Source of the DNA: Candidatus Omnitrophota bacterium
GTDB lineage: Bacteria; Omnitrophota; Gorgyraeia; Gygaellales; Profunditerraquicolaceae
DNA length: 64,000 nucleotides
Direction: 5' to 3'
NCBI GenBank assembly: GCA_043812955.1
Contig: JBDRLN010000064.1
Coordinates: forward strand, 326-64,325
A program made the position numbers and the translations under genes. The notes under the pieces were generated by a model that made no database searches, had not been told where the DNA came from, and was given only the letters and a program-made list of their open reading frames with translations. Numbering within the stretch: the stretch's first letter is position 1; each line of letters starts with the position of its first letter. Positions 41,479 through 59,873 of the stretch are shown here, in pieces.

Positions 41479-42072
41479 ATGTGGTATTGGGTATTTTGCG
41501 CGATATTCTCGGTAATAGGCAGGTCGCTATTTAGATTAAAAGTAGAGGGTCTGGAAAATATACCCTCGAAAACTAATTTTATAATAGTCTCTAATCATAA
41601 TAGTTTTCTTGACCCTTTGGTATTTATGGCGGTTATTCCTAAAAAAGTATATTGCATCGCTTTAAGAGATATCTATAAAATCAACTGGATGTCCTGGTTT
41701 TTAAAGGCCGCGGAGACTTTGCCCAGTGGTAGCGCATCGATTAAAGCAGTAAACCTATTACAGCTGAACAAAAATATAGGTTTATTCCCCGAAGGGGGAA
41801 TCAGTCGTGATGGTAAACTAAAAGAATTCAGAAGGGGCGCTGCTTTATTAGCCTATAAAACCGGACGCCCGATACTCCCTTGTGCGATATTAGGAACCTA
41901 TGAATCGCTTCCTTTTGGCTCACGGATCCCAAGGCTGCGGCCCATAAAACTTAAGATCGGAAAACCTATTTATTTTAGTAAAGAATTCGACGAAGAGATA
42001 GATAGCCTGTCGTTACAAGACGGTATACTCAAAATCAGAACTACGATCAAAGGAATGTTAAATGCAAAATAA
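41479..42072 (+). CDS. plsC: 1-acyl-sn-glycerol-3-phosphate acyltransferase family
   Basis: NHNSFLDP (HX4D) and FPEGG motifs. Confidence 0.8.
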   Translation: MWYWVFCAIFSVIGRSLFRLKVEGLENIPSKTNFIIVSNHNSFLDPLVFMAVIPKKVYCIALRDIYKINWMSWFLKAAETLPSGSASIKAVNLLQLNKNIGLFPEGGISRDGKLKEFRRGAALLAYKTGRPILPCAILGTYESLPFGSRIPRLRPIKLKIGKPIYFSKEFDEEIDSLSLQDGILKIRTTIKGMLNAK

Positions 42073-43633
42073 TGAGTTGTTTGAAATAGCGTTAAGCAGA
42101 GTGATTCCGGCTGAGAAATGGAGAATAATACGCCTGCTGACTAAGGTCTGGGAATTTCCTTCCTACATAGGCTGTGTCAAAGAGGCCTCAGTTATCCAAA
42201 AAAAACATAACACTATGCGCACAAAATGGCGGATCCAGGTAGACCACGTGCCGATCAGTTGGATAGAAGAAGATACTCTGGACCTTAAAGAAAATGCCAT
42301 TTACTTTAAAGCGATTGAAGGAGACTTGCCGGAATTCCAGGGTAAATGGTCATTTTACAGCCATCCTGACGGAACAGAAGTTAAGGTAAATGTCTTTCTT
42401 AAGGTCGGTATACCGGCAATCAACGATTTCGCGGATAATTATATAAAAAAATTAGTCACCAAAAATTTTGAGGCAATTCTAGAGGCAATAGAGCGTAGGC
42501 TGATCTCTACTAAATATTCCAGCTATAAACGCGGCAACAAAAATAAAATAGCTGGGTTCGGCATTATCGCCCATCTATATAATTATTGCCATCTGGAAAA
42601 ATGCCTGACTACTTTAAAACCAGGCATTAAGATGCCTTCCCGGGCTTTCCTGCAGCAGCTATATCAGATTACCCCGTCATTTAAGCTCTACGATATTGGT
42701 AAGTTCACTTCTAAAACCGGTGATACGCTAAAAGGATGTGTAGTCATGGCCACTTTTATCCCGGATATGATAGAGCAGGATCAATGGGCAGTCTTCTCCA
42801 AGATCACTAAGGCCTGCAAGATCGCTGAAAAAAACGGAATAGGGATAGTTACTCTTTCCTGTTTCGCATCGATGGTGCCGCAGAAAATCGACCATAATGT
42901 TTCGGATGATGTGCAGATCCCGATAACCACGGGAAATTCATTTACCGTGGCCATGGTTATGGAATCTTTATTAAAAGCCTGCCGTTTACTGCGTATTGAT
43001 TTAAAGCATTCAAAATGCGCTATTATCGGAGGCTGCGGAGATATCGGAAGCGCCTGTGCTCAGATCCTAACAGAAAAGGTAAATCAACTTTGTCTTGCCG
43101 GCAGAACTCCTGCGAAGCTAAAAAGTTTAAGCGATGAACTTACCCGTAAACACAAAGCTAAAATAATCACAAGTACTGATAATGAATTGGCGATTAAGGA
43201 TGCAGATATAGTGATTTGCGCGGCTAACCCCAGCGCCTCAATCATAAACATTAACTGGTTTAAGCCCGGAGCTGTAATCTGCGACGTAGGATACCCTAAA
43301 AATACTCCATATTTTTCCAGCCGCGAAGATATTTTAATATTCTCCGGTGGTTTGGTAAAATCCCCGACACCAATAAATTTCCCAATAGATATGGGCCTGC
43401 CTGCCCCGGATATCCTCTATGCCGCTTATGCCGAAGGTATAATACTGGCATTTGAAAAAAGATATGAAAATTTCACTCCGGAAAAAGGAAATATTACCCC
43501 AGAAATGGTTGATGAGATAAAAAAACTCGGGGCTAGGCATGGATTCGAAACAGCGGACTTTTACTGGGAAGGAAAATTGATCAGCGCTGAAAAGATCAAT
43601 AAAATAAAGAAAATCAAACAATTGATAAAATAA
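42062..43633 (+). CDS. fusion protein: N-terminal SRPBCC (polyketide cyclase/START-like) domain + full acyl-ACP reductase (AAR, cyanobacterial aldehyde-forming type) domain
   Basis: AAR-like blocks FGIIAHLYN, TTGNSFTVAMV, IIGGCGDIGSACAQIL, ICDVGYPKN, LYAAYAEGIILAFE, ARHGFE align with Synechococcus AAR; N-terminal ~170 aa resembles the SRPBCC ligand-binding fold. Confidence 0.65.
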   Translation: MQNNELFEIALSRVIPAEKWRIIRLLTKVWEFPSYIGCVKEASVIQKKHNTMRTKWRIQVDHVPISWIEEDTLDLKENAIYFKAIEGDLPEFQGKWSFYSHPDGTEVKVNVFLKVGIPAINDFADNYIKKLVTKNFEAILEAIERRLISTKYSSYKRGNKNKIAGFGIIAHLYNYCHLEKCLTTLKPGIKMPSRAFLQQLYQITPSFKLYDIGKFTSKTGDTLKGCVVMATFIPDMIEQDQWAVFSKITKACKIAEKNGIGIVTLSCFASMVPQKIDHNVSDDVQIPITTGNSFTVAMVMESLLKACRLLRIDLKHSKCAIIGGCGDIGSACAQILTEKVNQLCLAGRTPAKLKSLSDELTRKHKAKIITSTDNELAIKDADIVICAANPSASIININWFKPGAVICDVGYPKNTPYFSSREDILIFSGGLVKSPTPINFPIDMGLPAPDILYAAYAEGIILAFEKRYENFTPEKGNITPEMVDEIKKLGARHGFETADFYWEGKLISAEKINKIKKIKQLIK

Positions 43634-43643
43634 TTAATATTCA

Positions 43644-44741
43644 ATGAAAAAAGTTAAACCTCATTTTGCTTTTTTAATTCACCCGCCAGAACTTAAGGAT
43701 GTTTCTAAGCGATACCCTATTGCTAATTATATACCTGGATTTATCTTGGAAAAGATCCTTCGGATTTTACCACCGCTGATCGGAACGCAGATAACCGGTT
43801 TTAAATTAAACGGTAAAGAAATCCCGGGCATAATAGTAATTTGCCCACTCACAGCCCAACAAATGTTAAAATATCCGCAGCTCGCAGAGAAAAAGGTTAC
43901 TCAAAGCGTTCTCCTGGCTGAACGCCTGGGTTGCGAGTATATCGGCCTAGGTGCCTTTACCTCCATAGCTACAGATGGAGGTCTAAGTTTAATAAATAAG
44001 GTTAATAATATTAAATTAACTTCAGGTAACGTTTATGCCGCTGCCCTTATTATTGAAAATATTCAAAAAGCTGCCAAAATATTAAATACGGACATTTCTA
44101 AAGCCAGTCTGGCGATCGTAGGCGCCGCAGGTTCAGTTGGTTCGGCCTGCTCAAGAATACTCAGTAAAAAAGTAAATAAGATCATACTTATTGACAAAAG
44201 GTTCGATGAATTAGGCAAAATAGCGCAAGTTATAAAATCTAATAATAACCAGATCGATCTCGAATATTATCCCAATATACCATCGCCTATCCATGCGGAT
44301 ATCGTGGTTTCTGTTGCTAGCGCGTCAAAAGGTATAATTGAATCCTCACATCTAAGGCCAGGCACTATTGTTATTGATGCAGCTCAACCTCATAATGTTT
44401 CAGCAAAAGTCCTGGAAACGCGCAATGATGTAATAATCATCCATTCCGGAATAGCATATTTAGCGGGAATAGATTTACAAATGAACATCGGCCTGAACAA
44501 AGAAGAGATCTATGCCTGCCTGGGAGAAGTGTTAATGCTTATGTATCGAAACTGGGATAATCACTATAGCCTGGGGCCAGTAAATCCCGAACTTGTAGAA
44601 GAAGTACTGGTATATGCGCCGAAAATCGGATTACGGGTAGCTGATTTTCGTAATGGAAAAAAAATGGTTAAAGATGAAGATATTATTAGAGTAATAAAGA
44701 GTTGTCATAGCGGAGAGAAAAATGGCTTATCAAGTCTGTAA
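43644..44741 (+). CDS. acyl-ACP reductase (AAR) family paralog, stand-alone
   Basis: FAFLIHPPELKDV, LGAFTSI, VGAAGSVGSACSRIL, YACLGEVLMLMYRNWDNHYSLG match AAR blocks. Confidence 0.7.
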   Translation: MKKVKPHFAFLIHPPELKDVSKRYPIANYIPGFILEKILRILPPLIGTQITGFKLNGKEIPGIIVICPLTAQQMLKYPQLAEKKVTQSVLLAERLGCEYIGLGAFTSIATDGGLSLINKVNNIKLTSGNVYAAALIIENIQKAAKILNTDISKASLAIVGAAGSVGSACSRILSKKVNKIILIDKRFDELGKIAQVIKSNNNQIDLEYYPNIPSPIHADIVVSVASASKGIIESSHLRPGTIVIDAAQPHNVSAKVLETRNDVIIIHSGIAYLAGIDLQMNIGLNKEEIYACLGEVLMLMYRNWDNHYSLGPVNPELVEEVLVYAPKIGLRVADFRNGKKMVKDEDIIRVIKSCHSGEKNGLSSL

Positions 44742-45756
44742 TAAGTGTATTCTTGATACAAATATCCCTTATATTAATTTTAATAACGACGGTGTTTGTA
44801 ATATATGCGTTGATCATCAAAAGGCTCTAACGGGTGAGCCGATTAAAGATTACGAAAGGTTAGAGAAAAAATTCGCAAAATTGGTAAAAACAAATAATAA
44901 AAAAATCAAGTATGACTGTTTATGCCTTTATAGCGGAGGCAAAGACAGCACTAATATGCTTTATAACCTAGTAAAAAAACACAATCTTAAAGTGTTGGCT
45001 TTTACGCTGGATAACTGGTTTCTCTCAAAACAAACCTACTCCAATATCAATAAGGTTTTATCGAAATTGAATATTGATCATATAATTTTCAAACCTTCCT
45101 GGAACTTAACGGAATCTTTATTTAAATCCGGGATTTATAAGACTGGAAATTCAAAAGAAGCTCAAAAAATGTCATTTCTGATAGGCCATGTTTGCTGGCC
45201 TTGTTTTGTTATGATTAGTATTTTTTCAATCAAAACAGCTTTAGAAAAGAATATACCCAATATTATAGTCGGCACTACTCCCGGTCAGCTTACCCAAAAG
45301 GAGAGCACTCTTTTAAGTAAATATTCCGGAATAACTGATGTGTATAAAAAAATGATACTCCCTTTTTTAAAAATACTGGATAACGATGAAAAATATTATT
45401 TGAATTTATCGCTGGGTGAAAAACTCAAGAGCCTAAAGCTTAAACTTGTACCTTTTTATGAATACCATCGATATTGCGAAGAAGACGTTTTTAAAACAGT
45501 TGAAACTGAATTTGGATGGCAAAAACCGCAGGATACTGATTCCTGCAGCAGTAATTGCTCGATTAATTCCCTGGGCATATTAATTCATAGGAAAAAATAT
45601 AATATCAGTCCGTATTTAATCCCCCTGGCTCATGATGTAAGGGAAGGCTTAGTAAATCGGGAGAAGGCCATGAGCGATACATCTTCAGTCATCGACGAAA
45701 ATCTGGCGCGGGATATGGCGGCAAAACTGAATATTAACTGCGAAGACATCTTATGA
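44722..45756 (+). CDS. N-acetyl sugar amidotransferase-like PP-loop ATP pyrophosphatase (WbuX/PseA-like)
   Basis: N-terminal Cys cluster CNKC...CNIC followed by the PP-loop YSGGKDST. Confidence 0.65.
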   Translation: MAYQVCNKCILDTNIPYINFNNDGVCNICVDHQKALTGEPIKDYERLEKKFAKLVKTNNKKIKYDCLCLYSGGKDSTNMLYNLVKKHNLKVLAFTLDNWFLSKQTYSNINKVLSKLNIDHIIFKPSWNLTESLFKSGIYKTGNSKEAQKMSFLIGHVCWPCFVMISIFSIKTALEKNIPNIIVGTTPGQLTQKESTLLSKYSGITDVYKKMILPFLKILDNDEKYYLNLSLGEKLKSLKLKLVPFYEYHRYCEEDVFKTVETEFGWQKPQDTDSCSSNCSINSLGILIHRKKYNISPYLIPLAHDVREGLVNREKAMSDTSSVIDENLARDMAAKLNINCEDIL

Positions 45757-47960
45757 GCTTTAGATTAATTAATTATATTATTTCTTATGCTCTAGTGGGC
45801 ACGGTATTAACCTACCTGGCTTGCTTTATTTATTTCAGAGACAGAAAAAACTGGTTATTCAAAATTTTCGCTCTTTACAATTTATCTATCGCCTGGTGGT
45901 GCATTTTCTCAATACCTGCAATAATAGCCCCTAATAACGAGACCGGCGTATTGTGGTGCAGAATATTTATCAGCGGCGTTATTTTTATGCCCACCCTGGT
46001 TCTGCATTGCGCTTATTTACTATTAGGATATTCAGATAATAATAAATGTAAACTTATATTAAAAATATCCTACCTGTTATCTTTTATATTTTTACTTTTA
46101 AACTTTACGCCTTTTTTAATTCCAGCGGCTGAAAAAAAGTCGACTTTACTTTCTTATACGGTACCGGGACCGTTTTTTCATCTTCATGTTTTACACTTCT
46201 TTTTTATTATGCTCTACGCAGAAACCCTTTATTTAACCCATTATTTAAAAATCAGGGTTAAGGAAAAAATAGAAAGCAGGAAATACCTGTATTATTTTCT
46301 TTCATCTGTCATAGCTACTTTAGGCGGTGGCGCCAATTATCTTCCTGTTTATAGGTTTGAAATTCCATTCCTGAATCCTTACGGGACATATACAATTCTT
46401 TTATACGCCTCAGTTGTTACTTATACAATTATCCGCTACCGCTTTCTAAATACGTCTGTTATTATTACTCGCGCGGGTATATTTTTAGGTGTTTACGCTA
46501 TTGTCCTGGGATGCCCGTTTATCCTCGCAACCTCAGGGAAAAGCCCTCTTGTCAATCTATTCGGCCCGCTTTGGTGGGCCGGGCCGTTGGTTTTAATGGC
46601 TTCTTTGGGGACCTTGGGACCGTTTGTTTATATCTCCCTGCGCAAAAAAGCCGATGCCATACTCTTAAGAGAACAGCTGCGCTATCAGGATATCTTAAAA
46701 CTGGCGGCAGTAGATATGACCCGGATCCGCAACCTGCAAAAATTACTGGATTTTATTGCCCAAATCATCACTGAATCTGTGCGCATTTCCCATTCAGTAA
46801 TATATTATTTTAATCCGGAGAGTAAGCGTTTTGAATTGAAAGCCGGGATCAACTTAAATAAAAACCAGCCAACTGTAATCGATAATAAAAATAAGTTAGC
46901 CGCTTGGCTCGAGAAAAACAAACTGCCTCTGGTTTATGAAGAGATTAGAGATAGATCTAAAAATCATCCTGAATTTGTGGAATTAGAAAAACAGATGCGT
47001 TTGTTAAATGCTGATGTGGCTTTACCCTGTATCCTGGAGAATAAATTACTGGATATTATTATATTGGGGAAGAAGCTTTCAGGAAATATCTATACCTCTG
47101 ACGATCTGGATAACTTCCTTACTTTAGCAAAAGAAACCGCCTTGGCTACGGAAAATGCCCAACTATATGGGAAAATAGAGGAAGATGTGAAGCAAAGGAC
47201 CAAAGACCTGGTGGAGCTTCAAAAACAACTTATCCAGGCAGAAAAATTAGCCACCGTAGGTACGCTTGCTGGCGGCGTAGCCCATGAAATAAATAATCCC
47301 CTGACTGCGATCTTAACTAATGTCCAGATGCTCTTAAGATCGGATGAGTTAGATAAAGAGTCGCTAGAGATGATCGAAGAAGCGACTAAACGCTGCAAGA
47401 CTATTGTTCAGAAATTAATGGTTTACGCCAAAAAACCGCATCAGGAAACAATCGCTCCTTCTAAGATAAATTTAAAGGATACTCTTAATAGCGCTATCGC
47501 CTTCCTGAAATATCAATTTGAGCAGGATAATATAAAAATCAATATCGATGCCCTCAGGGATACTTATTTAGTTGAAGGCAACCAGAATGAGCTAGAGCAG
47601 GTAATAACCAACATAATACTCAATGCCAAAGATGCCATTAAACAAATTAAAAAAAGTGGTATAATAGAGTTGTCTCTAACGCAAACTGAAAGTTCGGTTA
47701 AAGTTGAAATCAAGGATGATGGAGTAGGAATTTCTAAAGATATAATCAACCGGATATTTGACCCTTTTTTTACCACTAAAGACGTGGGTAAAGGCTTAGG
47801 CCTGGGACTTTCGATCTGCCAATCTATCCTGGAAAAACATAAAGGAAAAATCACGGTCCGCTCTGAAATTAATAAAGGAGCGGTGTTTACTATTATATTA
47901 CCCGGCTTAAAAGATATCGACAGAGCAAATAGCTTAAAAGATGGAGGCCGCAATGGCTAA
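45753..47960 (+). CDS. sensor histidine kinase: multi-TM (7TM-type) N-terminal domain + GAF + HisKA + HATPase
   Basis: 7-8 TM helices; H-box AHEINNPLTAI; G-boxes DDGVGI and GKGLGLGLSI. Confidence 0.85.
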   Translation: MSFRLINYIISYALVGTVLTYLACFIYFRDRKNWLFKIFALYNLSIAWWCIFSIPAIIAPNNETGVLWCRIFISGVIFMPTLVLHCAYLLLGYSDNNKCKLILKISYLLSFIFLLLNFTPFLIPAAEKKSTLLSYTVPGPFFHLHVLHFFFIMLYAETLYLTHYLKIRVKEKIESRKYLYYFLSSVIATLGGGANYLPVYRFEIPFLNPYGTYTILLYASVVTYTIIRYRFLNTSVIITRAGIFLGVYAIVLGCPFILATSGKSPLVNLFGPLWWAGPLVLMASLGTLGPFVYISLRKKADAILLREQLRYQDILKLAAVDMTRIRNLQKLLDFIAQIITESVRISHSVIYYFNPESKRFELKAGINLNKNQPTVIDNKNKLAAWLEKNKLPLVYEEIRDRSKNHPEFVELEKQMRLLNADVALPCILENKLLDIIILGKKLSGNIYTSDDLDNFLTLAKETALATENAQLYGKIEEDVKQRTKDLVELQKQLIQAEKLATVGTLAGGVAHEINNPLTAILTNVQMLLRSDELDKESLEMIEEATKRCKTIVQKLMVYAKKPHQETIAPSKINLKDTLNSAIAFLKYQFEQDNIKINIDALRDTYLVEGNQNELEQVITNIILNAKDAIKQIKKSGIIELSLTQTESSVKVEIKDDGVGISKDIINRIFDPFFTTKDVGKGLGLGLSICQSILEKHKGKITVRSEINKGAVFTIILPGLKDIDRANSLKDGGRNG

Positions 47961-48336
47961 AAGGATCCTGATAGTTGATGATGAAGCAATGATAACCAAG
48001 AGCCTGAAAAAACTACTCACTAAAGAAGGTTTTGAGCCAGTCATTGTCTCAGGAGGCAACGAGGCATTGGGCCAGGTAAAAACTAATGACTTTGATTTGT
48101 TGATTATAGACATACGTATGCCCCAGATGGATGGGATTGAAACGATCCGGGCGATCAGAGAGTATATGGCGGTAGAAGGCAAAGATCCTATACCGGAAAT
48201 TGTTATCACCGGCTATGCTGATGAAAATAAATATAAATGCGCGGTTGACTTAAAAGTAAACGCCTATATCTATAAACCATTTGATACCAGCGAGTTCCTT
48301 GGCACAATAAGAGAAGTTCTAGAGAAAAACCCTTAG
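47941..48336 (+). CDS. stand-alone response-regulator receiver (CheY-like) protein
   Basis: ILIVDDE ... LLIIDIRMPQMDG receiver motifs; no output domain. Confidence 0.85.
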   Translation: MEAAMAKRILIVDDEAMITKSLKKLLTKEGFEPVIVSGGNEALGQVKTNDFDLLIIDIRMPQMDGIETIRAIREYMAVEGKDPIPEIVITGYADENKYKCAVDLKVNAYIYKPFDTSEFLGTIREVLEKNP

Positions 48337-48339
48337 GAT

Positions 48340-49566
48340 ATGAACAAAGCAGTCATTACAGGAGTCGGGGTAATTGCTCCAAACGGGATCGGTAAAGAGG
48401 AATACTGGAAAGCCTTGAAAAGCGGTACATCCGGGATAAGGCCGATCAGTGTTTTTGATTCCAGCTTATTTAAGGCCCACTTAGCCGCGGAAGTAATTAA
48501 TTTTGATCCGGTAACCTATTTGGGAGACAAGGGTTTAAGAAATCTGGACCGGGGAACTAAATTCCTTTGTTCCGCGGCCAAATTAGCCATAGACGACGCC
48601 AAGCTAGAGATTAACGATGATAATTCTAATGACATCGGAGTTGTTACAGCTACAACCTTGTCCGTTATCTGGAATATCTCCACATTCAGTAAAGAAGCCG
48701 AAGACGAAGGCCCTCAATTCGTAAACCCGGCCATGTTTCCCGGAACAACCATTAATGCCCCTTCAAGCCAGGTATCCATAAGATTCAATATAAAAGGCTT
48801 TAATACTACTATCTCCACAGGCTTTACCGCAGGTTTAGACAGCCTTAGGTACGCTATTGATTTTATTAAACTTGGCCGGGCAAAAGCGATTTTAGTCGCT
48901 GGAGTAGAATCTCTTTTTTTTCAGACCTTTGTTGGTTTCCATAAACTGGAATTCCTGGCCGGTATTAAAGGAGAAGAGGTATGCGCTCCTTTTGACCTGC
49001 GTAGAAACGGTATCATAATTGGAGAGGGGAGCGCCGTACTGATCCTGGAAAACGAAAAAGACGCTTTAAAAAGAAAAGCTAAAATATATGCTGAAGTTTC
49101 CGCGGTCGAGAATTTCTTCGACCCTTTTCGCAGCGGCAGATATAATCCCAAGGCCGAAGGATTAAAACGCTCAATTACCCATTCTTTAAAAAAAGCAAAA
49201 ATAAAAAACAGCGAAATAAATTATATCTCATCTTCTGCTAACTCAGTTCCGGCGCAGGATATGTTAGAAACTAAAGCGATTAAAGATGTTTTTGAAAACC
49301 AAGCAAGGAACATTCCGATTAGCTCTATTAAATCTATGATTGGAGAAGCGGTAAGCGCGTCAGGGATATTGCAGGTTGCTGCGTGTTTAGGGGCTATGGA
49401 GAATAATTTCATACCTCCGACCATAAATTACCAAGCACCTGACCCGGCTTGCGATTTAGATTATGTCCCCAATAAATCCCGGGATAAAAGGGTAGAAAAA
49501 GCCTTAATAACTAATTTTGGTCCGGGCGGAAACAATGCCGCAGCCATCATTGTGAAATATGAATAA
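48340..49566 (+). CDS. beta-ketoacyl synthase homolog lacking the catalytic Cys-His-His triad (KSbeta/chain-length-factor-like)
   Basis: Thiolase/KS fold, but the active-site position reads TGFTAGL (no Cys) and His positions read SSSANS / GEAVSASG. Confidence 0.75.
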   Translation: MNKAVITGVGVIAPNGIGKEEYWKALKSGTSGIRPISVFDSSLFKAHLAAEVINFDPVTYLGDKGLRNLDRGTKFLCSAAKLAIDDAKLEINDDNSNDIGVVTATTLSVIWNISTFSKEAEDEGPQFVNPAMFPGTTINAPSSQVSIRFNIKGFNTTISTGFTAGLDSLRYAIDFIKLGRAKAILVAGVESLFFQTFVGFHKLEFLAGIKGEEVCAPFDLRRNGIIIGEGSAVLILENEKDALKRKAKIYAEVSAVENFFDPFRSGRYNPKAEGLKRSITHSLKKAKIKNSEINYISSSANSVPAQDMLETKAIKDVFENQARNIPISSIKSMIGEAVSASGILQVAACLGAMENNFIPPTINYQAPDPACDLDYVPNKSRDKRVEKALITNFGPGGNNAAAIIVKYE

Positions 49567-50776
49567 GAATACCAGAATAGTAGTTACCGGCTTAGGAGTG
49601 ATCTCTGCTATCGGGATCGGAAAAAAGCAATTTTGGGATGCCGCACTTGCCGGGACATCCGGGATCAGCGATATCGTTTCTGTAGACACTACTGGTTTTA
49701 AATGCCATCGTGGCGGAGAAGTCAAAGATTTCCATCCTGAAGATTTTATTCCTAAAAGAAAGGTTAAATATCTTGGCCGGGCTTCACAACTGGCTATTGC
49801 CGCTGCTAAATTAGCCATTGAAGATAGCGGAATTGTATTTAAAGAAATACCTAAAACAAAACTAGGTGTCCTCGTGGGCACTACTATGGGCGAAAAACCT
49901 GTGGAAGAATTAATTCAGTCCTGGGTAAAAGGCGGATTAAAAGATTTAGACCGGCGCAGGATCCTTCAGGCCTCAGCCAATAATATATCGGCCAATGTAG
50001 CTTTGTATTTTAAAGCCAAAGCTCAGAATTATCTTTTTCCAACAGCCTGCGCAGCCGGAAACTACGCTATTGGATATGGATTTGATTTGATTAAAAGCGG
50101 CAGCTTGGATTTTGTTTTAGCCGGAGGGGCAGAACCTTTTTCTTATACCGCTTATATGGGTTTTCAACGGCTTTACGCCATGGCAACTGATAAATGCCAA
50201 CCCTTTGATAAAAACCGCAAAGGAATGATGTTAGGCGAAGGTTCAGGAATGCTTCTTTTAGAAAAACTGAAGTCAGCCCTGGAAAGAGGGGCGAATATCT
50301 ACGCCGAGATCTTAGGATACAGCCTATCCTGCGATGCCCATCATCCTACAGCTCCTGAAGTTGGCGGGATTTCTATGGTTATGGAAAAAGCCCTAAAGGA
50401 AACTAATATTTCTTATAAAGACGTTGATTATATCTGTTCTCACGGCACCGGCACACCGATGAATGATAAGGTTGAATCCCAGGCAATTAAGAATGTATTT
50501 AAAGAACGCTATAAAGATATACCGGTAAATTCCCTAAAATCAATGCTCGGACATAGCATGGGCGCTGCCTCAGCGATTGAGGCTTTATCCTGTTGCTTGT
50601 CGGTAAAAGAGGACCTGATCCCGCCGACTATAAATTACGAAACCCCTGACCCGGATTGCGATATAGATTGTGTCCCGAATGTCAAAAGAGAAAAAATTGT
50701 GAATATCGCCTTTAATAACGGTTTTGCTTTTGGCGGGAATAATTCCTGTTTAGTGATTAAAAAATTCATTAAATAA
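49559..50776 (+). CDS. beta-ketoacyl-ACP synthase (KAS II/FabF-like, KSalpha partner) with intact Cys-His-His
   Basis: PTACAAGNYAIG (Cys), CSHGTGTPMND (His), GHSMGAAS (His); overlaps the upstream KS by 8 nt. Confidence 0.85.
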   Translation: MNKNTRIVVTGLGVISAIGIGKKQFWDAALAGTSGISDIVSVDTTGFKCHRGGEVKDFHPEDFIPKRKVKYLGRASQLAIAAAKLAIEDSGIVFKEIPKTKLGVLVGTTMGEKPVEELIQSWVKGGLKDLDRRRILQASANNISANVALYFKAKAQNYLFPTACAAGNYAIGYGFDLIKSGSLDFVLAGGAEPFSYTAYMGFQRLYAMATDKCQPFDKNRKGMMLGEGSGMLLLEKLKSALERGANIYAEILGYSLSCDAHHPTAPEVGGISMVMEKALKETNISYKDVDYICSHGTGTPMNDKVESQAIKNVFKERYKDIPVNSLKSMLGHSMGAASAIEALSCCLSVKEDLIPPTINYETPDPDCDIDCVPNVKREKIVNIAFNNGFAFGGNNSCLVIKKFIK

Positions 50777-50921
50777 GTGAGGGCATAAGTTATGGAGCTG
50801 GACATAATAAACAAGGCGTCCGCCACAAAGTCGCCACAGGAATTGGCGACCCGCCAAGCTATGTGGAGGGATCGGCGGATCCGCCAATATTTATGGCGGA
50901 ACATAACTTATATATCCATAC

Positions 50922-51038
50922 TTATCCCGCCCTTTTGGCGTGATAAAAAACAAATTCTATCAAAAAAGCGGGATTAATTCGCAGACGGCCTTGCGGCCTA
51001 CGAATTGCGTCGTAAGAATCACTCCCTAAGTCGTCTGC
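50922..51038 (+). ncRNA. candidate structured 5'-leader element (copy B) upstream of the ACP gene: TCCCGC...GCGGGATTAATTCGCAGACGG-GGCCTTGCGGCC-...-CGTCTGC
   Basis: Homologous core with 16252-16344; outer helix GCAGACGG (50981-50988) / CGTCTGC (51032-51038) ends 5 nt before the RBS AAAGGAG. Confidence 0.4.
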
Positions 51039-51058
51039 TCATTAAAGGAGAGTATAAA

Positions 51059-51310
51059 ATGGCAAAAGACAACTTTACAGAAATAAAAAAAGATGTCAAA
51101 AATAAGGTTTCGGAGATCATTGAGGTTGGGGAAGAGAAGTTAAAAGATGAAACCAAATTCGTGGAAGACCTGGGAGTTGACAGCATGATGGCGCTGGAGA
51201 TCGTCGCCAGCATAGAGAAAAAATACAAGATCAGCATTCCCGAAGCGGACATACCCAAGATCCGCTGCCTTAATGATATCTACACAGTGCTTGAAAAAAC
51301 ATTGAAATGA
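51059..51310 (+). CDS. acyl carrier protein (discrete, cluster-associated)
   Basis: LGVDSMMALEIV phosphopantetheine-attachment motif (DSM variant); RBS AAAGGAGAG; 83 aa. Confidence 0.8.
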   Translation: MAKDNFTEIKKDVKNKVSEIIEVGEEKLKDETKFVEDLGVDSMMALEIVASIEKKYKISIPEADIPKIRCLNDIYTVLEKTLK

Positions 51311-51344
51311 AAATAATCGCTTTTCCCAATTATGAGGTGATAAA

Positions 51345-51791
51345 GTGAGTAACATATGGGATATAAATAAAATCCAGGAGATCCTGCCCCAAAGATATCC
51401 TTTTTTATTCATTGATAGCGTAGTAGAGATAAATGAAGAGGAAGGAAAGGTATCCTGCCTGAAAAACGTAAGTATTAATGATTACTTCTTTAGGGGGCAT
51501 TTTCCCGGAAACCCGGTTATGCCGGGAGTTATCATTATTGAGGCAATGGCCCAAGCCAGCATTATTCTTTACGCGGCTTTAAAACCGGAAATCGCCGTCA
51601 AACACCCGGTTTATTACCTGGGTAACGTGGATATCAAATTCCTCAAACCCGTATTGCCCGGCAACCAGCTTATCCTGCAAATTTCCAAAGAAAAAATAAT
51701 GGATAAGGCAGGCATTGTCAGCGCTGAGGCAAAAGTAAATAATGCAGTTGTAGCCAAAGGCAGGATTACCTTCGGGGTTCAGCCTAAATAA
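51345..51791 (+). CDS. 3-hydroxyacyl-ACP dehydratase (FabZ/FabA hotdog family)
   Basis: YPFLFIDSV ... FFRGHFPGNPVMPGVIIIEAMAQ. Confidence 0.85.
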   Translation: MSNIWDINKIQEILPQRYPFLFIDSVVEINEEEGKVSCLKNVSINDYFFRGHFPGNPVMPGVIIIEAMAQASIILYAALKPEIAVKHPVYYLGNVDIKFLKPVLPGNQLILQISKEKIMDKAGIVSAEAKVNNAVVAKGRITFGVQPK

Positions 51792-51869: not shown

Positions 51870-52550
51870 ATGGAAAAAGAATATGCCCTCAATCTATCCT
51901 CCCAAATCGGAATTGACGTACAGCAGGTGGTCAGAGAAGAGATCGAGCTTATTTTCCTTAAGGCCCTTTTTGAATCAAAAATTTCAGATTCATTAGTTTT
52001 TAAGGGCGGCACAGCCCTGCGGCTTATATATAATTCGCCGCGTTTCTCAGAGGACCTCGATTTTTCCCTGACTGCCGCGATAACCTACCGTGATTTTAAA
52101 ACAATAATTTCCAGGATAATCAAATCGGATGATCGTTTTTCCATAAACGACCTGGCTGAAAAATTTTACACCTGCCTGGCTGAAATCCGGGTAAAAGAAG
52201 CCTGGATGGACCAGGCATTCTCGCTTAAAATCGAAGTATCTAAACGCCCGGAAAAAATAAAATCAGCGAATCTCGCAAATATGCTGGCAAAATCTCCCGC
52301 TACCAACTTAATGGTCATGACTAAGGTATATACGCTTAAAAAGATACTTGAAGATAAACAGCGTTTGCTTTCCGAACGAAAAATGCCCCGGGACATCTTT
52401 GATACCTGGTATATCTGCCAAAAAACCGGGGAACCATTTACTTTTAAACAATTCGGTTATCCCAAAGGAAAAATCCGCCAGGAATTAAGAAAATTTCTTC
52501 CCCGCGGTTTTTACTCGGTTATTGATGAACTGGAGAAATTAAATGCTTAA
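51870..52550 (+). CDS. AbiEii/AbiGii-family nucleotidyltransferase (type IV TA toxin-like)
   Basis: FKGGTALRLIYNSPRFSEDLDFS nucleotidyltransferase motif. Confidence 0.6.
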   Translation: MEKEYALNLSSQIGIDVQQVVREEIELIFLKALFESKISDSLVFKGGTALRLIYNSPRFSEDLDFSLTAAITYRDFKTIISRIIKSDDRFSINDLAEKFYTCLAEIRVKEAWMDQAFSLKIEVSKRPEKIKSANLANMLAKSPATNLMVMTKVYTLKKILEDKQRLLSERKMPRDIFDTWYICQKTGEPFTFKQFGYPKGKIRQELRKFLPRGFYSVIDELEKLNA

Positions 52551-53124
52551 GGTATATGAAGCCCTGCTTAATTTAGATAAACGCTACCTTAGCGCCAGGG
52601 AAATAGCGCGCATACTCAATATCAGCTCCGGAAATAGAAAAGTATCGATAAGCAGGCTTACAAAGAGGAAGATACTGCGTAGGCTCAGGCGCAATCTTTA
52701 CGAAGTATCGCTAAAACCAACGGATATCCTTGAAGCCGCTAACAGCGTTTACCAACCGAGTTATCTTTCATTTACCTATTGCCTGGGCAAACTCGGGTTA
52801 TTGAACCAGATCGCTTATGAAATAGAATTTGCCACCCCAAAGAAAACAAAGAGGATTGAAATCCGCGGCCGCGGCGTGATCTTCCGCAAAATTAAAAAAG
52901 AATTATTTTTTGGTTACGAGCTTAACGACAATATTTTTACAGCGAAGCCTGAGAAGGCGCTTTTGGATACATTATATTTAAAAACAAAAGGCCTGGCGGT
53001 TATCAATGAGAAAGAACTTAATCTTAAAGATATTAATAAACAGAAAATAATCACGATGAGCAGGAAATTTCCGCTCAAAGTCCAGCAAGAAACAAAAAAA
53101 CTTATTTCAAAATATGTCAAATAA
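52543..53124 (+). CDS. AbiEi-like antitoxin/transcriptional regulator (winged-helix N-domain)
   Basis: N-domain LSAREIARILNIS...RLTKRKILRRLRRNLYEV resembles the AbiEi antitoxin domain; 8-nt overlap with the upstream NTase gene. Confidence 0.5.
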   Translation: MLKVYEALLNLDKRYLSAREIARILNISSGNRKVSISRLTKRKILRRLRRNLYEVSLKPTDILEAANSVYQPSYLSFTYCLGKLGLLNQIAYEIEFATPKKTKRIEIRGRGVIFRKIKKELFFGYELNDNIFTAKPEKALLDTLYLKTKGLAVINEKELNLKDINKQKIITMSRKFPLKVQQETKKLISKYVK

Positions 53125-54214
53125 ACCCGCGATATTCCTGACCGGAGCTACGGGATTAGTCGGATCATACCTATTAAAACTATTCCTGGAAAAAAACCAT
53201 AAAGTTTTTGCCTTAGGCAGGGGTAAAAACGAGAAAACTACCATAGAAAGGGTAATGGAGGTTTTGAGATTCTGGGATAAAAATATACCAAACAGCAAAA
53301 TTAATAATCTCCAGATTATAGAAGGCGACGTAGCTGAAAATAATCTAGGGCTGGATAAAAACAGCAGAAAAATGCTGGCTCTGGAGACAGAAGAAATCTT
53401 CCATTCCGCAGCTATCACTGATCTGCACCGGCCGATAAAAGAAATCAACAAGGTCAACGTAGGTGGCACCAGAAACATCATGATTTTCGCTGAAAAACTG
53501 AATAAAGAACGCCTGGTAAAAGTAAATCACATCAGCACCGCTTATATTTACGGCAATTATAGGGGCGTATTCAAGGAAGATTCCCTAGACGTCAAACAGA
53601 AATTTAATACCAATTATGAAAGTTCCAAGTTCGAAGCCGAAAAACTGATCAGTGAATTCCGCAAGAAAGGACTTTGGATAGATATTTTTCGGCCGTCAAT
53701 GGTTACCGGAGACACCAAAACCGGAAAGACCTTCCAATTCCGCCATATCTACCAATTCATTAACCTCTGCTGCTTAGAAATATTTGACACCCTGCCGCTG
53801 AAAAACGGTAGGGTAAGCTTGGTTCCTATAGATGTTTTCTCCGAAGCCGCGTATGTTATAACCAGGAAGAACCGGGCCAAATGCGCGAATTATCATCCTT
53901 TTCCGGCTAAACTGGTCAGCGTGGAGAAAATCGTTGATTTAGGCCATCAGATCATTGGCTTTAAGAAGCCAAAATTGGTCCTGCCCGAAGAATTCCGGAT
54001 GGATACCCTGACTCCTTCCCAGAGATTAATTCTACGGGGAACTATTCTGGCAATAAACTTCCAGACTAAGCTTAATTCTAACTATACTAAGCAAATCTTA
54101 AAAAAATATCATTTTAATATGCCTGAAATCACCAATAAATTGCTGGCTAAGAATATTGAATATTTCAAGGATAATATCCGAATCGGAGGCGTCTACCATG
54201 ACCGGAAGATTTGA
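53114..54214 (+). CDS. thioester-reductase (TR) domain protein / fatty acyl reductase (NAD_binding_4, SDR-type)
   Basis: IFLTGATGLVGSYLL Rossmann motif; FHSAAITD...NVGGTRNIM...VNHISTAYIYG matches TR-domain blocks. Confidence 0.7.
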   Translation: MSNKPAIFLTGATGLVGSYLLKLFLEKNHKVFALGRGKNEKTTIERVMEVLRFWDKNIPNSKINNLQIIEGDVAENNLGLDKNSRKMLALETEEIFHSAAITDLHRPIKEINKVNVGGTRNIMIFAEKLNKERLVKVNHISTAYIYGNYRGVFKEDSLDVKQKFNTNYESSKFEAEKLISEFRKKGLWIDIFRPSMVTGDTKTGKTFQFRHIYQFINLCCLEIFDTLPLKNGRVSLVPIDVFSEAAYVITRKNRAKCANYHPFPAKLVSVEKIVDLGHQIIGFKKPKLVLPEEFRMDTLTPSQRLILRGTILAINFQTKLNSNYTKQILKKYHFNMPEITNKLLAKNIEYFKDNIRIGGVYHDRKI

Positions 54215-55472
54215 TTACATAATCGTGGGCGCCGGCCTCTGCGGACTTACTTTAGCCAAAGGACTTAGCCAGAAAAACAAAAAAGTCCTGGTCTTGGAAC
54301 AGGGTGGCTATATTAAGAAATTTGGCAATTTATTATACGCAGCTTCAATTTACGATAAATTCACTCTATCTAAAAGTAGACAGGGATTTATAATTCTGCG
54401 CTCATTTGGAGTAGGCGGAACAAGCATAGTCAGCTGCGGCAATGCCGTGGAATTTCCTGAGGAAGAAATAAATAAGATAGGTATAGATTTCCGCAGCGAA
54501 TTGGATTCAGCAAAAAAAGAATGCTGCCAAACCACCAAACACCCTATTGGAAAAGCTTCAATGAAGATAATGAAAACTGCTAATCAATTAGGATACGATA
54601 TGCAACCAATGCCCAAACTCGGTTTAGAAAAATGTGTATCTTGTGGCAATTGCATTTTAGGGTGCGGTCATCTGGCAAAATGGACTGCAGCAGAATACCT
54701 CAAAGATATTAATAAACATGATGTTTGTATAATTACCGGTTTTAAAGTCAAAAAGGTATTGAGCTCCGCTGGTAAAGCAATAGGAATAGAAGGAAGCGGT
54801 GGTTTATTCTCAAGTCAAAAATATTTTTCCGATAAAATAATCCTTTCTGCCGGAGGTATCGGTACTCCGATCATATTGCAAAAATCAGGAGTAGAAGAAG
54901 CTGGAAAAAGTCTTTTTGTGGATTTTTTCACCAATATATACGGGATCAATAAAGAATTTAACCAGGCTAAAGAAGTAAGTATGTCGGTGGTCTGCGCAAA
55001 ATTTCACAAGAAAGACGGCTTTATACTTTCACCTTTTATTGACAGTTCAATCGGGCTTTTAGCCTGCGTTGAGATTAAACACGCCGGTTACGCTCTAAAG
55101 CTAAATAGCCTGATGGGATTAATGAATAAAATTAACGATGATAATGTTGGCCGGGTTTATCCCAACGGCGCTGTTGACAAAGCACTCACTCAAAATGACT
55201 GGAAAAAATTAAGAAAAGGCAATGAAATAGCTACAGAAATCCTGATTAAAAGCGGGGTGAATCCTAAGAGTATATTTATTACCTTGCCCAGAGGAGCGCA
55301 TCCCGGAGGAACAGCTGCTATTGGTAAAGTTGTAAATACCAGCTTAGAGACTAAAATAAAAAATCTTTACGTTTGTGATTGCAGTGTATTACCGGAAGCT
55401 CCCGGTTTTCCGCCAATCTTGACCCTGATCGCCATTTCCAAATGGTTTGCTAAGAATGTTTTGTTGAAATAA
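54198..55472 (+). CDS. GMC-family FAD-dependent oxidoreductase-like protein
   Basis: N-terminus DYIIVGAGLCGLTLA (FAD fingerprint); C-terminal GGTAAIGKVVNTSLETKIKNLYVCDCSVLP resembles the GMC C-terminal motif; start at 54198 after RBS GGAGG. Confidence 0.55.
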   Translation: MTGRFDYIIVGAGLCGLTLAKGLSQKNKKVLVLEQGGYIKKFGNLLYAASIYDKFTLSKSRQGFIILRSFGVGGTSIVSCGNAVEFPEEEINKIGIDFRSELDSAKKECCQTTKHPIGKASMKIMKTANQLGYDMQPMPKLGLEKCVSCGNCILGCGHLAKWTAAEYLKDINKHDVCIITGFKVKKVLSSAGKAIGIEGSGGLFSSQKYFSDKIILSAGGIGTPIILQKSGVEEAGKSLFVDFFTNIYGINKEFNQAKEVSMSVVCAKFHKKDGFILSPFIDSSIGLLACVEIKHAGYALKLNSLMGLMNKINDDNVGRVYPNGAVDKALTQNDWKKLRKGNEIATEILIKSGVNPKSIFITLPRGAHPGGTAAIGKVVNTSLETKIKNLYVCDCSVLPEAPGFPPILTLIAISKWFAKNVLLK

Positions 55473-56056
55473 TGAGCATATTAAAATTAATTAAACAAAG
55501 AACAGCGGTTAGAAAGTATAAAAATAAAGCTATTTCTGCTAAAAGAATAGCAAAAATAATAGAGGCTGGAATATGGGGCCCGTCTATTCATGGTATACAA
55601 TCTTGGAAATTCGTAATAGTACATAATAAAAACATAATTAATAAAATTTCGAATATAACGGCTAAAAAATCTAAAAAAATTAATATTCCAACTTTTATTT
55701 CAATTCCGACTATAAAAGCACTCGCCAGTACAGAAATACTCATTTGCATATATAATACCAGAAAATTTAGCTTATTTGCCAGTAGATTAAATAAGTTATA
55801 TAAGAAGAATGCTGAAGTTGCAGAATTATCAGCAATTTCGGCAGCTATTCAGAATATGATTCTTACTGCAGAAGACCTTAAAATTGGGTCGTGTTGGCTA
55901 GATATGCCATTGTTCTGCAAAGAGGATATCAGCCATATAATAAAAGAACCTACAGGAGAATTAGTAGCGCTTTTAACTCTAGGGTATGCTGTCGACACAA
56001 GAAAATATAGAACACCACGTAAAATAACTAAAGAAACAGTTAGGTATCTAAAATAG
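55472..56056 (+). CDS. nitroreductase-family flavoprotein
   Basis: LIKQRTAVRKYKNKAIS N-terminal nitroreductase motif; size ~190 aa. Confidence 0.65.
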   Translation: MSILKLIKQRTAVRKYKNKAISAKRIAKIIEAGIWGPSIHGIQSWKFVIVHNKNIINKISNITAKKSKKINIPTFISIPTIKALASTEILICIYNTRKFSLFASRLNKLYKKNAEVAELSAISAAIQNMILTAEDLKIGSCWLDMPLFCKEDISHIIKEPTGELVALLTLGYAVDTRKYRTPRKITKETVRYLK

Positions 56057-56058
56057 GC

Positions 56059-57513
56059 ATGAATAAGGAGTACGATATAATAATTATTGGGGCTGGAATC
56101 GGCGGACTAACCTGTGGTTGTTATCTGGCGAAGGCTGGCTTAAAGGTTCTAATCGTAGAGCAACATTATAAAGCAGGAGGATATTGCACTTCTTTTGAAA
56201 GGCAGGGGTATAAATTTGATGTTGGAGTACATTATTTCGGAGGAATAAAAAAAGGTATTTTAAGTGTTATCCTTGATGACTTAAATTTAAGAAAAACAAT
56301 AAAGTTTAAACAGTTTAATCCTACCGATAAAATAATTACCCCAAAAGCTACCACATATATTAGGTCTAATCCCAAAGATACTATCCGAGAATTTAAGGAT
56401 AACTTTCCATCGGAAAACATGAACATTGATGCATTCTTTAAATTTATAAAACAAGATAATTTTATTAATATTTACAAAAGAACATCAAAGGTGACTTTTA
56501 ATGATGTCTTGGACGAATTTTTTAAGAACCAGGTTTTAAAAGCTACCTTTAACGTCCTTTTAAGGAATATCGGATTATGCGCCAACGATGCATCGGCCCT
56601 AGCAACAATAATATTCCTGAGAGAATACATACTTGATCCCGGATATTATCCTGAAGGCGGAATACAAAAATTTCCTGAAGCCCTACTCGATAAATTCAGG
56701 GAATATGGCGGAATGGTTATGTTAGCTCAAAAGGTAAATAAAATTATTACCGGGAATAATCAAGTTAGGGGTGTCCGGCTTAAGAACGAAAAAACAATTA
56801 AAGCCAGGTATGTAATTTCAAATGCCGATGTCACTGAAACCTTTGGGGAATTGCTTGATATAAAAACAGAGGAATTAAAAAAAATAAGGAAGTTAGCTAT
56901 TTCACCTTCGGCTTTTATTGTTTACCTTGGCTTAAATGAAGATTTCATAAAGCAGATAAAGGATCCGTGCAATATATGGCCTTTTTCAACTTATAGCCTG
57001 ACCAAATCTCCAATTAATCATAAGAACGACATACTTAAAGGAAAACCATTATTAAGCTTACTTACTTTTCCTCATTCCCATGATTTAACTTATAAAAATC
57101 GGAAAAAACCAACAATGCAATTAATGGGGTTAACTTATTATGAATCAAAAGGATTTTGGGCAAAAAATAGAGACAAACTAACTAATAAATTGATAATAGA
57201 AGCTGAAAAATTATTTCCGTCTTTGAAGAAATATATTGTTATAAAAGAGAGCGCTACACCAATTACCTGTAAAAGATATACTTCAAACAGCTATGGCTCT
57301 GCTTTTGGCTGGGCTTCAACAGTTAAACAAATTAATCCTTTAGCTTCTCCGGCAAAAACCTCTATTAAAGGATTATTTCTCACTGGACATTGGTGTACTG
57401 TGGGAAGCGGACAGGGAGGGATCCCAAAAGTAGCTTTCTCTGGCAGAAGAACAGCTAGTTTAATTTTGAAGGAATGTGCCATAAAGTCGTATTTAAGTGA
57501 CTACCTATTATAA
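56059..57513 (+). CDS. phytoene-desaturase-family (CrtI-like) FAD-dependent oxidoreductase/desaturase
   Basis: YDIIIIGAGIGGLTCGCYLAKAGLKVLIVEQHYKAGGYCTSF dinucleotide-binding motif; amine-oxidase/CrtI-like length. Confidence 0.7.
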   Translation: MNKEYDIIIIGAGIGGLTCGCYLAKAGLKVLIVEQHYKAGGYCTSFERQGYKFDVGVHYFGGIKKGILSVILDDLNLRKTIKFKQFNPTDKIITPKATTYIRSNPKDTIREFKDNFPSENMNIDAFFKFIKQDNFINIYKRTSKVTFNDVLDEFFKNQVLKATFNVLLRNIGLCANDASALATIIFLREYILDPGYYPEGGIQKFPEALLDKFREYGGMVMLAQKVNKIITGNNQVRGVRLKNEKTIKARYVISNADVTETFGELLDIKTEELKKIRKLAISPSAFIVYLGLNEDFIKQIKDPCNIWPFSTYSLTKSPINHKNDILKGKPLLSLLTFPHSHDLTYKNRKKPTMQLMGLTYYESKGFWAKNRDKLTNKLIIEAEKLFPSLKKYIVIKESATPITCKRYTSNSYGSAFGWASTVKQINPLASPAKTSIKGLFLTGHWCTVGSGQGGIPKVAFSGRRTASLILKECAIKSYLSDYLL

Positions 57514-59740: not shown

Positions 59741-59762
59741 GTGGAGTCCACCTACGGGGTGG
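59730..59762. repeat. Family-C hairpin: CCACCCCGTAGGTGG-AGT-CCACCTACGGGGTGG (15-bp stem, 3-nt loop) spanning the histidine kinase stop codon
   Basis: Read directly; same core as the hairpin at 15831-15863. Confidence 0.8.
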
Positions 59763-59873
59763 AATATAGTCAAAGTAATTGACAACCAGGCTAAATAGCG
59801 ATATCTTGTACATCTGTACCCATGATCAAAGTCATAATCTTTGATGTTTTTTTAAAACAGGAGAAGAGCTTAA

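Follow-up and report, generated by a model that had tools for sequence, protein, structure and literature searches.

A catalytically dead ketosynthase and its active partner in an Omnitrophota lipid gene cluster: a probable relative of the anammox Cluster I module

INTRODUCTION

The biosynthesis of ladderane lipids is a long-standing problem, for which the leading candidate is Cluster I of anammox bacteria (KustE3603-3608), a set of genes encoding the acyl carrier protein (ACP) amxACP, the dehydratase amxFabZ, the ketosynthases (KSs) amxFabF2 and amxFabFmut, the phytoene-desaturase-like protein PDH, and a B12 radical SAM enzyme (bioRxiv 10.64898/2026.05.19.726425). Here, we compare this cluster with four genes in a 64,000-nucleotide (nt) stretch of DNA from an uncultured Candidatus Omnitrophota bacterium (GenBank assembly GCA_043812955.1, contig JBDRLN010000064.1, positions 326 to 64,325 of the forward strand), referred to below as the window: those for a catalytically dead KS (KS1, here named KSm), its active partner (KS2), an ACP, and a FabZ-type dehydratase. 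Sequence comparison indicates that the four genes are probably the Omnitrophota copy of the specialized type II fatty acid synthase (FAS)-like module of anammox Cluster I.

In a May 2026 preprint, amxFabFmut and amxFabF2 of Brocadia fulgida were reported to co-purify and to crystallize as a heterodimer, amxFabFhet (structures 9s5h and 9s5i), that has one active site and is active only when both subunits are together (bioRxiv 10.64898/2026.05.19.726425). The heterodimer decarboxylates malonyl-amxACP and yields acetoacetyl-ACP; it is crosslinked faster by C8 than by C16 probes, with C6-C8 preferred, and mutation of Phe135 and Val139, residues of the dead subunit that line the tunnel, shifts the chain-length preference. 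The same preprint calls Cluster I unique to ladderane producers. In amxFabZ, an Ile replaces a conserved tunnel Gly and a basic ACP-docking residue is lost; the enzyme is efficient up to C8 and slow beyond, is specific for amxACP, and refuses canonical ACP (PMC10139942). A dead FabF paralogue in Kuenenia had been noted in 2009 (PMC2649909).

RESULTS

Catalytic residues of the ketosynthase pair

The dead beta-ketoacyl synthase KSm (48340-49566, 408 aa) belongs to the amxFabFmut orthologue group and is a putative chain-length factor (CLF)-like partner of KS2 (49559-50776, 405 aa), an active ketosynthase of the amxFabF2 orthologue group; both are encoded on the plus strand and both cover the complete ketoacyl-synt N and C domains of Pfam. 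Alignment of 163 KS sequences with MAFFT shows that the Cys/His/Lys/His catalytic columns are occupied by F162/S299/K331/E336 in KSm and by C164/H295/K327/H332 in KS2. An earlier examination of the DNA letters (the sequence-only reading) had described KSm as a complete KS fold devoid of active-site residues and KS2 as carrying an intact catalytic set. Both descriptions hold, and every motif quoted for them was located in the translations: TGFTAGL and SSSANS in KSm and TACAAGN, HGTGT, and GHSMGA in KS2. The claimed loss of the Cys (to Phe) and of the first His (to Ser) likewise stands, but the second His, which had been called absent, is replaced by Glu336, and Lys331 is retained. KS2 also keeps the Thr/Thr pair that contacts pantetheine through hydrogen bonds to the arm, together with the gate residue Phe391; the equivalents in B. 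fulgida are T300/T302/F394.

The closest homologues of KSm are found in Candidatus Omnitrophota metagenome-assembled genomes (MAGs), at 99% (strain GCA_041643395.1, locus L112), 88% (locus L001), and 75% (locus L002) identity, and more than 100 further homologues at ∼60 to 70% identity come from Omnitrophota, Nitrospirota/Thermodesulfovibrionia, Firestonebacteria, and other PVC-group MAGs. An exact-sequence look-up of KSm gave no match. When each GTDB species, represented by one genome, was scanned with two search patterns, one of them containing the diagnostic His-to-Glu change, up to 455 species genomes encoding a relative of the dead KS were identified, mainly in the Omnitrophota and Nitrospirota. 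All counts per 80 loci given here refer to the best 80 loci of these 455 genomes, among them the complete genome of Candidatus Velamenicoccus archaeovorus (NZ_CP019384.1). The dead-triad pattern recurs in all 80: the Cys column holds Phe or Tyr and never Gln, the Lys is retained, and the first His column holds a small or polar residue. In the dead clade as a whole (the 80 members of the family and the B. fulgida reference), all 81 sequences have Glu in place of the second His and retain the Lys. The tunnel-lining residues are F133/T136/T137 in KSm versus F135/T138/V139 in B. fulgida, and the corresponding triplets in the clade are FTV (55 sequences), FTT (21), and FMV (5).

The KSm and KS2 genes share exactly 8 nt (ATGAATAA), GTG AAA TAT GAA TAA over ATG AAT AAG. 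This overlap, correctly identified in the sequence-only reading, is also conserved in L001, the 88% identical relative. Comparison with the orthologues in L001 gave ratios of nonsynonymous to synonymous substitution rates (dN/dS) of 0.08 for KSm and 0.05 for KS2. By these measures, KSm is a functional protein under strong purifying selection. The loss of all three catalytic residues might speak for a decaying pseudogene or an assembly artifact without function, and the sequence-only reading had named assembly error as the finding that would overturn it. However, the open reading frame (ORF) is full length, the same substitution pattern is repeated in 80 independent genomes, dN/dS is 0.08, the start-stop overlap is conserved, and a homologue of KSm has been solved as a folded subunit. 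Because the dead pattern is shared by all 80 relatives and dN/dS is low, the residue losses are not sequencing errors; decay or artifact was excluded on these grounds and has practically no chance of being correct.

Relationship to anammox and polyketide ketosynthases

A search of the PDB returned anammox Cluster I proteins as the closest solved structures for all four window proteins. The pattern of the KS scores is reciprocal: KSm matches amxFabFmut (9s5h_C) with 364 bits, amxFabF2 (9s5h_B) with 279 bits, and any FabF with at most 252 bits; for KS2, the scores are 478 bits to 9s5h_B and 216 bits to 9s5h_C. A neighbor-joining tree was calculated from one alignment that combined KSm and KS2 with 155 KSs of related loci and six reference KSs, the last taken from HMMER alignments and short of a few terminal residues. 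In this tree, amxFabFmut (46% identity) is the sister of the 80-member dead-KS clade that contains KSm, and amxFabF2 (54%) is that of the clade of 61 active KSs that contains KS2; next to the latter come Iga11 (43%) and then FabFs (39 to 40%). The placement of the anammox proteins as sisters, not nested within the clades, is provisional because the 80 loci are those most similar to the window. Neither KS groups with housekeeping FabF in the alignment and tree, contrary to the clustering with FabF/FabB that the sequence-only reading had allowed for as grounds for its rejection, and both score below the NCBIfam fabF equivalog cutoff of 493.75 (KS2, 406.6; KSm, 338.9).

The sequence-only reading had taken the pair for a KS/CLF heterodimer of the type II polyketide synthase (PKS) or aryl polyene (APE) kind, in which a KS/CLF pair and a dehydratase without an enoyl reductase would make a polyene. 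Consistent with this proposal, KS2 is, apart from amxFabF2, closest to Iga11 of the polyene ishigamide pathway (335 bits, 43% identity), its nearest non-anammox solved relative; moreover, the cluster is devoid of an enoyl reductase and includes a desaturase-like flavoprotein. The similarity to actinorhodin proteins is, however, low: the actinorhodin KS 1tqy_A scores 195 bits with KSm and 208 bits with KS2, and the actinorhodin CLF 1tqy_B scores 140 bits with KSm, against 364 for amxFabFmut. Phe162 occupies the position at which PKS CLFs have Gln. Iga12 was absent among the KSm matches at E ≤ 1e-20, and KSm appears, from these comparisons, to be a dead-KS lineage separate from Iga12. Neither aryl-starter genes (adenylation enzyme or ammonia-lyase) nor LolA/MMPL exporter genes were detected among the window ORFs scanned, and, as regards cyclase/aromatase genes, the only SRPBCC domain in the window is fused to a reductase. 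In addition, the window FabZ scores 19.9 bits against the ApeI-like model (cutoff, 28.5) and 103 to 148 bits against the FabA/FabZ models. A polyene-forming PKS or APE-like system is therefore improbable. The functional half of the earlier claim fares better than its family assignment: the amxFabFhet precedent supports, by homology, a role of KSm as a CLF-like partner of KS2, whereas the scores, the Phe in place of Gln, and the lack of APE genes in the window speak against PKS or APE affiliation.

For gene order, 31 metagenomic loci were fetched with B. fulgida amxFabFmut, one of them 100% identical and ∼20 more from other anammox lineages. In the anammox loci (L081-L101), the genes lie on one strand in the order ACP-FabZ-amxFabF2-amxFabFmut-PDH-B12 radical SAM, in most cases followed by an Lpd-like gene. 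The active KS is thus upstream of the dead one, the opposite of what a sentence in the preprint states. Because anammox loci put the active KS first, the dead-first order of the window, remarked upon as unusual in the sequence-only reading, is unusual even beside anammox.

No homologue of the radical SAM protein of anammox locus L081 (B12-binding plus Radical_SAM domains) was detected in the window, and in the 80 related loci only 2 contain even a weak match (23% identity). Since this gene is absent from the window, a ladderane product is not expected.

Acyl carrier protein and dehydratase

Downstream of KS2 on the plus strand lies the gene for a putatively dedicated 83-aa ACP (51059-51310) with the phosphopantetheine-site motif DSM, centered on Ser42. 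Although the ORF list gives 51005-51310, starting at a TTG, start analysis places the start at the ATG at 51059, behind an AAGGAG site; the 83-aa product that is also called in the 99% identical strain supports this assignment. The position of the ACP within the cluster is conserved across related loci. Among 48 ACPs of the family, 22 have DSM, 17 DSL, and 6 DSI, so that DSM, the commonest motif, is a family trait and not an anomaly; the sequence-only reading had correctly reported the motif, as a departure from the canonical DSL.

The hotdog dehydratase that had been recognized after the ACP is an amxFabZ-type 3-hydroxyacyl-ACP dehydratase (51345-51791, plus strand) with the catalytic His52 and the catalytic Glu, supported by Pfam and NCBIfam matches. 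Its best solved match is amxFabZ (7qv0, 140 bits), compared with 110 bits for the best canonical FabZ. The tunnel motif AQASIIL places Ile73 where canonical FabZ has Gly, and the equivalent of position 96, a basic ACP-docking residue in canonical FabZ, is Leu. At the tunnel position, none of 64 family FabZs has Gly.

The KS2-ACP spacer (50777-51058) is full of inverted repeats. It spans 282 nt in the window, against 71 nt for the 99% identical strain and 63 nt for L001, and an Rfam scan of 47.8 to 53.3 kb returned no family matching it. Its last ∼80 nt resemble sequence upstream of the ACP, plus a second site, in L043 and L037. The spacer could be a small mobile or regulatory element.

Distribution and gene neighborhoods

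Neighbor families were defined by clustering the ORFs around the 80 loci. The most frequent companions of the dead KS are a FabG-like short-chain dehydrogenase/reductase (SDR; 66/80 loci), FabZ (64/80), an active KS of the KS2 type (∼60/80), and an ACP (at least 47/80). Next come a 7TM histidine kinase (45/80), a response regulator (26/80), a PDH-like flavoprotein (25 to 26/80), an HD-GYP protein (17/80), a thioester reductase (16/80), and a third, divergent but intact KS (16/80); acyl-ACP reductase (AAR)-like proteins are encoded at 11/80 loci and a PlsC-type acyltransferase, adjoining the AAR-like genes, at 8/80.

Locus L002, the 75% identical relative, has the exact gene order of the window plus a FabG gene directly upstream of KSm; on this comparison, the window and L001 have lost FabG from that position. 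Neither a FabG-like SDR nor a known enoyl reductase is encoded across the 64-kb window, in agreement with what the sequence-only reading had stated about missing ketoreductase and enoyl reductase genes. That reading had left a choice between polyene-type products and the recruitment of housekeeping FabG/FabI, and the neighborhoods favor the latter: given the FabG-like gene beside the pair at 66/80 loci, including L002, ketoreduction is most likely supplied by a FabG whose gene lies elsewhere in the genome.

Several further features are seen in some of the related loci. The third KS has an intact Cys-His-Lys-His set and ∼430 aa, follows KS2, clusters in a separate clade apart from FabF, KS2, and KSm, and is found in L006, L008, L009, L012, L013, L020-L023, L027, L028, L030, L032, L040, L045, and L055; it is absent from the window. 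In Nitrospirota-type loci (L053, L062, L064-L066, L069, L070, L073, L078, and L080), a 423-aa protein with a C-terminal SAM-methyltransferase domain and an N-terminal part of no assigned family is encoded directly upstream of the module. A PilZ domain considered for this protein was not confirmed, as Pfam detects methyltransferase domains only. Finally, genes for an Lpd-like dihydrolipoyl dehydrogenase, a LipB/LplA-type transferase, and a lipoyl-domain protein adjoin the KSm module in an Omnitrophota subclade, upstream of KSm in L043-L046, L051, L052, L058, L059, L072, and L075, and an Lpd-like gene lies downstream of the radical SAM gene in most of the longer anammox loci (L081-L097).

The breadth of this distribution, up to 455 species genomes, raises the prospect that the module is simply the housekeeping FAS of the organism, with a heterodimeric KS serving Omnitrophota and Nitrospirota in place of the homodimeric FabF and ordinary membrane fatty acids as products. 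The usual setting with FabG, ACP, and FabZ resembles a fab operon and often lies amid housekeeping genes; in the window, PlsC-type acyltransferases adjoin the module and no other FAS genes occur in the 64 kb. Several observations point the other way. The window is devoid of fabH, fabD, and fabG, so that synteny with fabH-fabD-fabG-acpP is not seen. Anammox bacteria carry the module besides a canonical fabH-fabD-acp-fabF cluster (PMC4790861, PMC2649909); amxFabZ refuses canonical ACP and is slow beyond C8 (PMC10139942), and its tunnel Ile is conserved here; KS2 falls short of the fabF cutoff (406.6 versus 493.75); and the loci lack fabH, fabD, and fabI genes beside the module. On the loci and sequences compared, a housekeeping role is unlikely, albeit the least unlikely of the alternatives considered.

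Another alternative, a short-chain synthase devoted to supplying octanoyl-ACP for lipoate assembly in the manner of mitochondrial FAS II, would agree with the anammox data, in which both FabZ and the KS heterodimer prefer C6-C8 (PMC10139942; bioRxiv 10.64898/2026.05.19.726425). It would also fit the Mdh, Lpd, LipB, and lipoyl-domain genes that lie directly upstream of KSm on the same strand in the Omnitrophota subclade with Candidatus Velamenicoccus archaeovorus, as well as the Lpd-like gene after the anammox cluster. Yet the linkage to Lpd/LipB, seen at only ∼16/80 loci, may reflect lineage-specific synteny; lipoate genes are missing from the surroundings of the module in the window, as is an enoyl reductase; and lipoate synthesis does not involve the recurrent genes for the PDH, the thioester reductase, the AAR-like proteins, and the acyltransferases. 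We consider lipoate supply as poor a prospect as polyene formation.

The surrounding lipid gene cluster

The identities of the flanking genes were assigned from Pfam and NCBIfam matches and from co-occurrence; because the accessory genes vary between loci, these assignments rest on association. All are on the plus strand. The upstream part of the cluster starts with a PlsC/Aas-type acyltransferase (41479-42072), whose best NCBIfam match is an acyl-[ACP]--phospholipid O-acyltransferase domain and which probably moves the product onto a lysolipid. It is followed by two proteins resembling acyl-ACP reductases and the N-terminal part of PigE (42062-43633 and 43644-44741), the first of them fused to an SRPBCC lipid-binding domain; by a lineage-specific PP-loop protein that resembles the WbuX amidotransferase (44722-45756, 1/80 loci); and, upstream of KSm, by a 7TM histidine kinase (45753-47960, HisKA_7TM) and a response regulator (47941-48336), the latter directly adjacent to it.

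Between FabZ and the thioester reductase sits a pair of genes for an AbiEii-like nucleotidyltransferase and an AbiEi-like protein (51870-53124, Pfam), with the toxin-like gene first. Homologues occur at 2 to 3/80 loci; the pair is absent from L001 (82% identical at the nt level) and L002 and present in the 99% identical strain. It looks like a recent toxin-antitoxin or abortive-infection insertion that is not part of the biosynthetic system.

The downstream part continues with a thioester/fatty-acyl reductase (NAD_binding_4; 53114-54214), found with the KS pair at 16/80 loci, which probably frees the acyl chain as an aldehyde or alcohol. Next are three flavoproteins: a GMC-family oxidoreductase (54156-55472, Pfam and NCBIfam), whose true start probably lies further downstream, given the 424-aa product called in the 99% identical strain; a nitroreductase-family protein (55472-56056, Pfam, 6 to 7/80 loci); and a phytoene-desaturase/amine-oxidase-like protein (56059-57513) that is homologous to the anammox Cluster I PDH at 34% identity. 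The region 57521-61405, a conserved regulatory flank, encodes a second histidine kinase (7TM-GAF), a response regulator, and a GAF-HD-GYP phosphodiesterase, and the cluster is completed by an MGDG-synthase-like glycosyltransferase (61408-62523) and an LpxL-type lipid acyltransferase (62535-63392), found at 4/80 loci.

The biosynthetic genes are thus bracketed by two 7TM kinases, two single-domain response regulators, and the GAF-HD-GYP protein, an arrangement that is common among related loci and suggestive of dedicated regulation, perhaps with a connection to c-di-GMP. The window as a whole is unusually rich in second-messenger components: two small stand-alone PilZ proteins (24351-24704 and 26001-26357) flank gpsA, and a CdaA-type diadenylate cyclase is encoded at 20909-21658. 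Elsewhere in the window, a 1,078-aa ORF on the minus strand (4221-7457) has no Pfam match at E ≤ 1e-5 and lies amid a plus-strand housekeeping region.

DISCUSSION

Taken as the Omnitrophota copy of the anammox Cluster I module, the four genes would work as follows. By analogy to the anammox orthologues, KS2 and KSm would pair as an obligate heterodimer that has a single active site, with KSm lining the acyl tunnel via Phe133, Thr136, and Thr137 in the manner of a CLF and taking no part in catalysis. The heterodimer would prime itself by decarboxylation of malonyl-ACP and extend chains carried by the putatively dedicated ACP (51059-51310). Reduction of the beta-keto group would fall to a FabG from outside the window, and the Ile-bearing FabZ would dehydrate the 3-hydroxy intermediates, probably with a bias toward short or medium chains. 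Gene context suggests that the module is the core of a regulated lipid cluster of ∼22 kb (41.5 to 63.4 kb). In such a cluster, the PDH-like flavoprotein may modify the chain, the thioester and acyl-ACP reductases may release part of it as aldehyde or alcohol, and the PlsC/Aas-, LpxL-, and MGDG-synthase-type transferases may build it into membrane lipids or glycolipids, all under the putative control of the 7TM histidine kinases, the response regulators, and the HD-GYP enzyme.

A number of points weigh against this assignment. Identity to the characterized anammox subunits is only 46 to 54%, and the match of the ACP to amxACP (9s5i_E, 46.8 bits) exceeds that to an ordinary ACP (45.4 bits) by a negligible margin. 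A proxy for interface charge, the net charge of the helix-loop-helix 110-140 and the helix 196-206, failed to separate the two subunits, even those of B. fulgida. The window contains no ketoreductase or enoyl reductase, which bears on the reduction state of the product, and the accessory genes differ widely between the 80 loci. For the anammox enzymes themselves, elongation past acetoacetyl-ACP was not seen in vitro and no lipid product has been linked to them, and no experimental characterization of the non-anammox members or of Omnitrophota fatty acid biosynthesis was found in the literature.

The dead FabF (2009; PMC2649909), the heterodimer (2026 preprint), and antiSMASH "ladderane" calls in Omnitrophota and further non-anammox phyla (2023; PMC9902471) were already known. 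Added here, at the level of sequence, are the orthology of both KS subunits and of FabZ, the conservation of structural determinants over the 80 loci, and the identification of the B12 radical SAM gene as the feature that distinguishes anammox clusters from the others. As regards the window, the implication is modest: a conserved, apparently functional dead-KS partner within a lipid cluster. More broadly, the presence of five of the six Cluster I gene families in non-anammox phyla qualifies the statement that the cluster is unique to ladderane producers; antiSMASH "ladderane" calls deserve more caution; and the comparison points to the radical SAM enzyme as the anammox-specific step. By analogy with amxFabFhet, the KS/CLF-type heterodimer in FAS-like lipid metabolism appears to be phylogenetically widespread, beyond anammox.

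A more speculative proposal, which we put forward tentatively and hold to be rather less likely true than false, is that the KSm/KS2/ACP/FabZ/PDH core is an old, widespread membrane-lipid module of anaerobic Omnitrophota, Nitrospirota, and relatives, to which the radical SAM enzyme is the sole anammox-specific addition. If so, the radical SAM enzyme would be singled out as the candidate for cyclobutane formation, and the non-anammox clusters would provide a tractable chassis for tests of ladderane biosynthesis.

Comparison with known systems

Two earlier descriptions concern the same kind of locus: the antiSMASH "ladderane" clusters in non-anammox MAGs, with Omnitrophota listed (Geller-McGrath et al. 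2023, PMC9902471), and the FAS-like clusters of Desulfotalea psychrophila (Rattray et al. 2009, PMC2649909). The accessible portions of these two papers contain no analysis of the dead/active pair, of the orthology to the anammox proteins, or of the absence of the radical SAM gene. With the actinorhodin KSalpha/KSbeta pair (1tqy), the window would share the heterodimer principle of one active site plus a tunnel-shaping partner; unlike in actinorhodin, the dead subunit lacks the CLF Gln, the two genes stand in the reverse order, aromatic-polyketide tailoring genes are missing, and sequence similarity is low. The highly reducing type II PKS of ishigamide, Iga11/Iga12 (6kxd), is alike in that an active KS and an inactive partner act on ACP-bound chains together with a ketoreductase and a dehydratase, but no close relationship between KSm and Iga12 was detectable.

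Anammox Cluster I differs from the window in its host, which is Brocadiia and not Omnitrophota; in its order, ACP-FabZ-KS2-KSm versus KSm-KS2-ACP-FabZ; and in the residue at the Cys position, Val or Thr in anammox versus Phe in the window. The window furthermore has accessory genes of its own, namely those for the thioester reductase, the GMC oxidoreductase, the nitroreductase, the AAR-like proteins, the acyltransferases, and the two-component regulators. Conversely, the window holds five of the six Cluster I gene families, including a PDH that is 34% identical to that of B. fulgida (236 bits). It also follows the same dead-triad logic, in which the Lys is retained and the second His becomes Glu, as in B. 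fulgida (V/N/K/E) and, for the Glu, in K. stuttgartiensis, and it shares the tunnel residues, the gate Phe, and the Gly-to-Ile change of FabZ.

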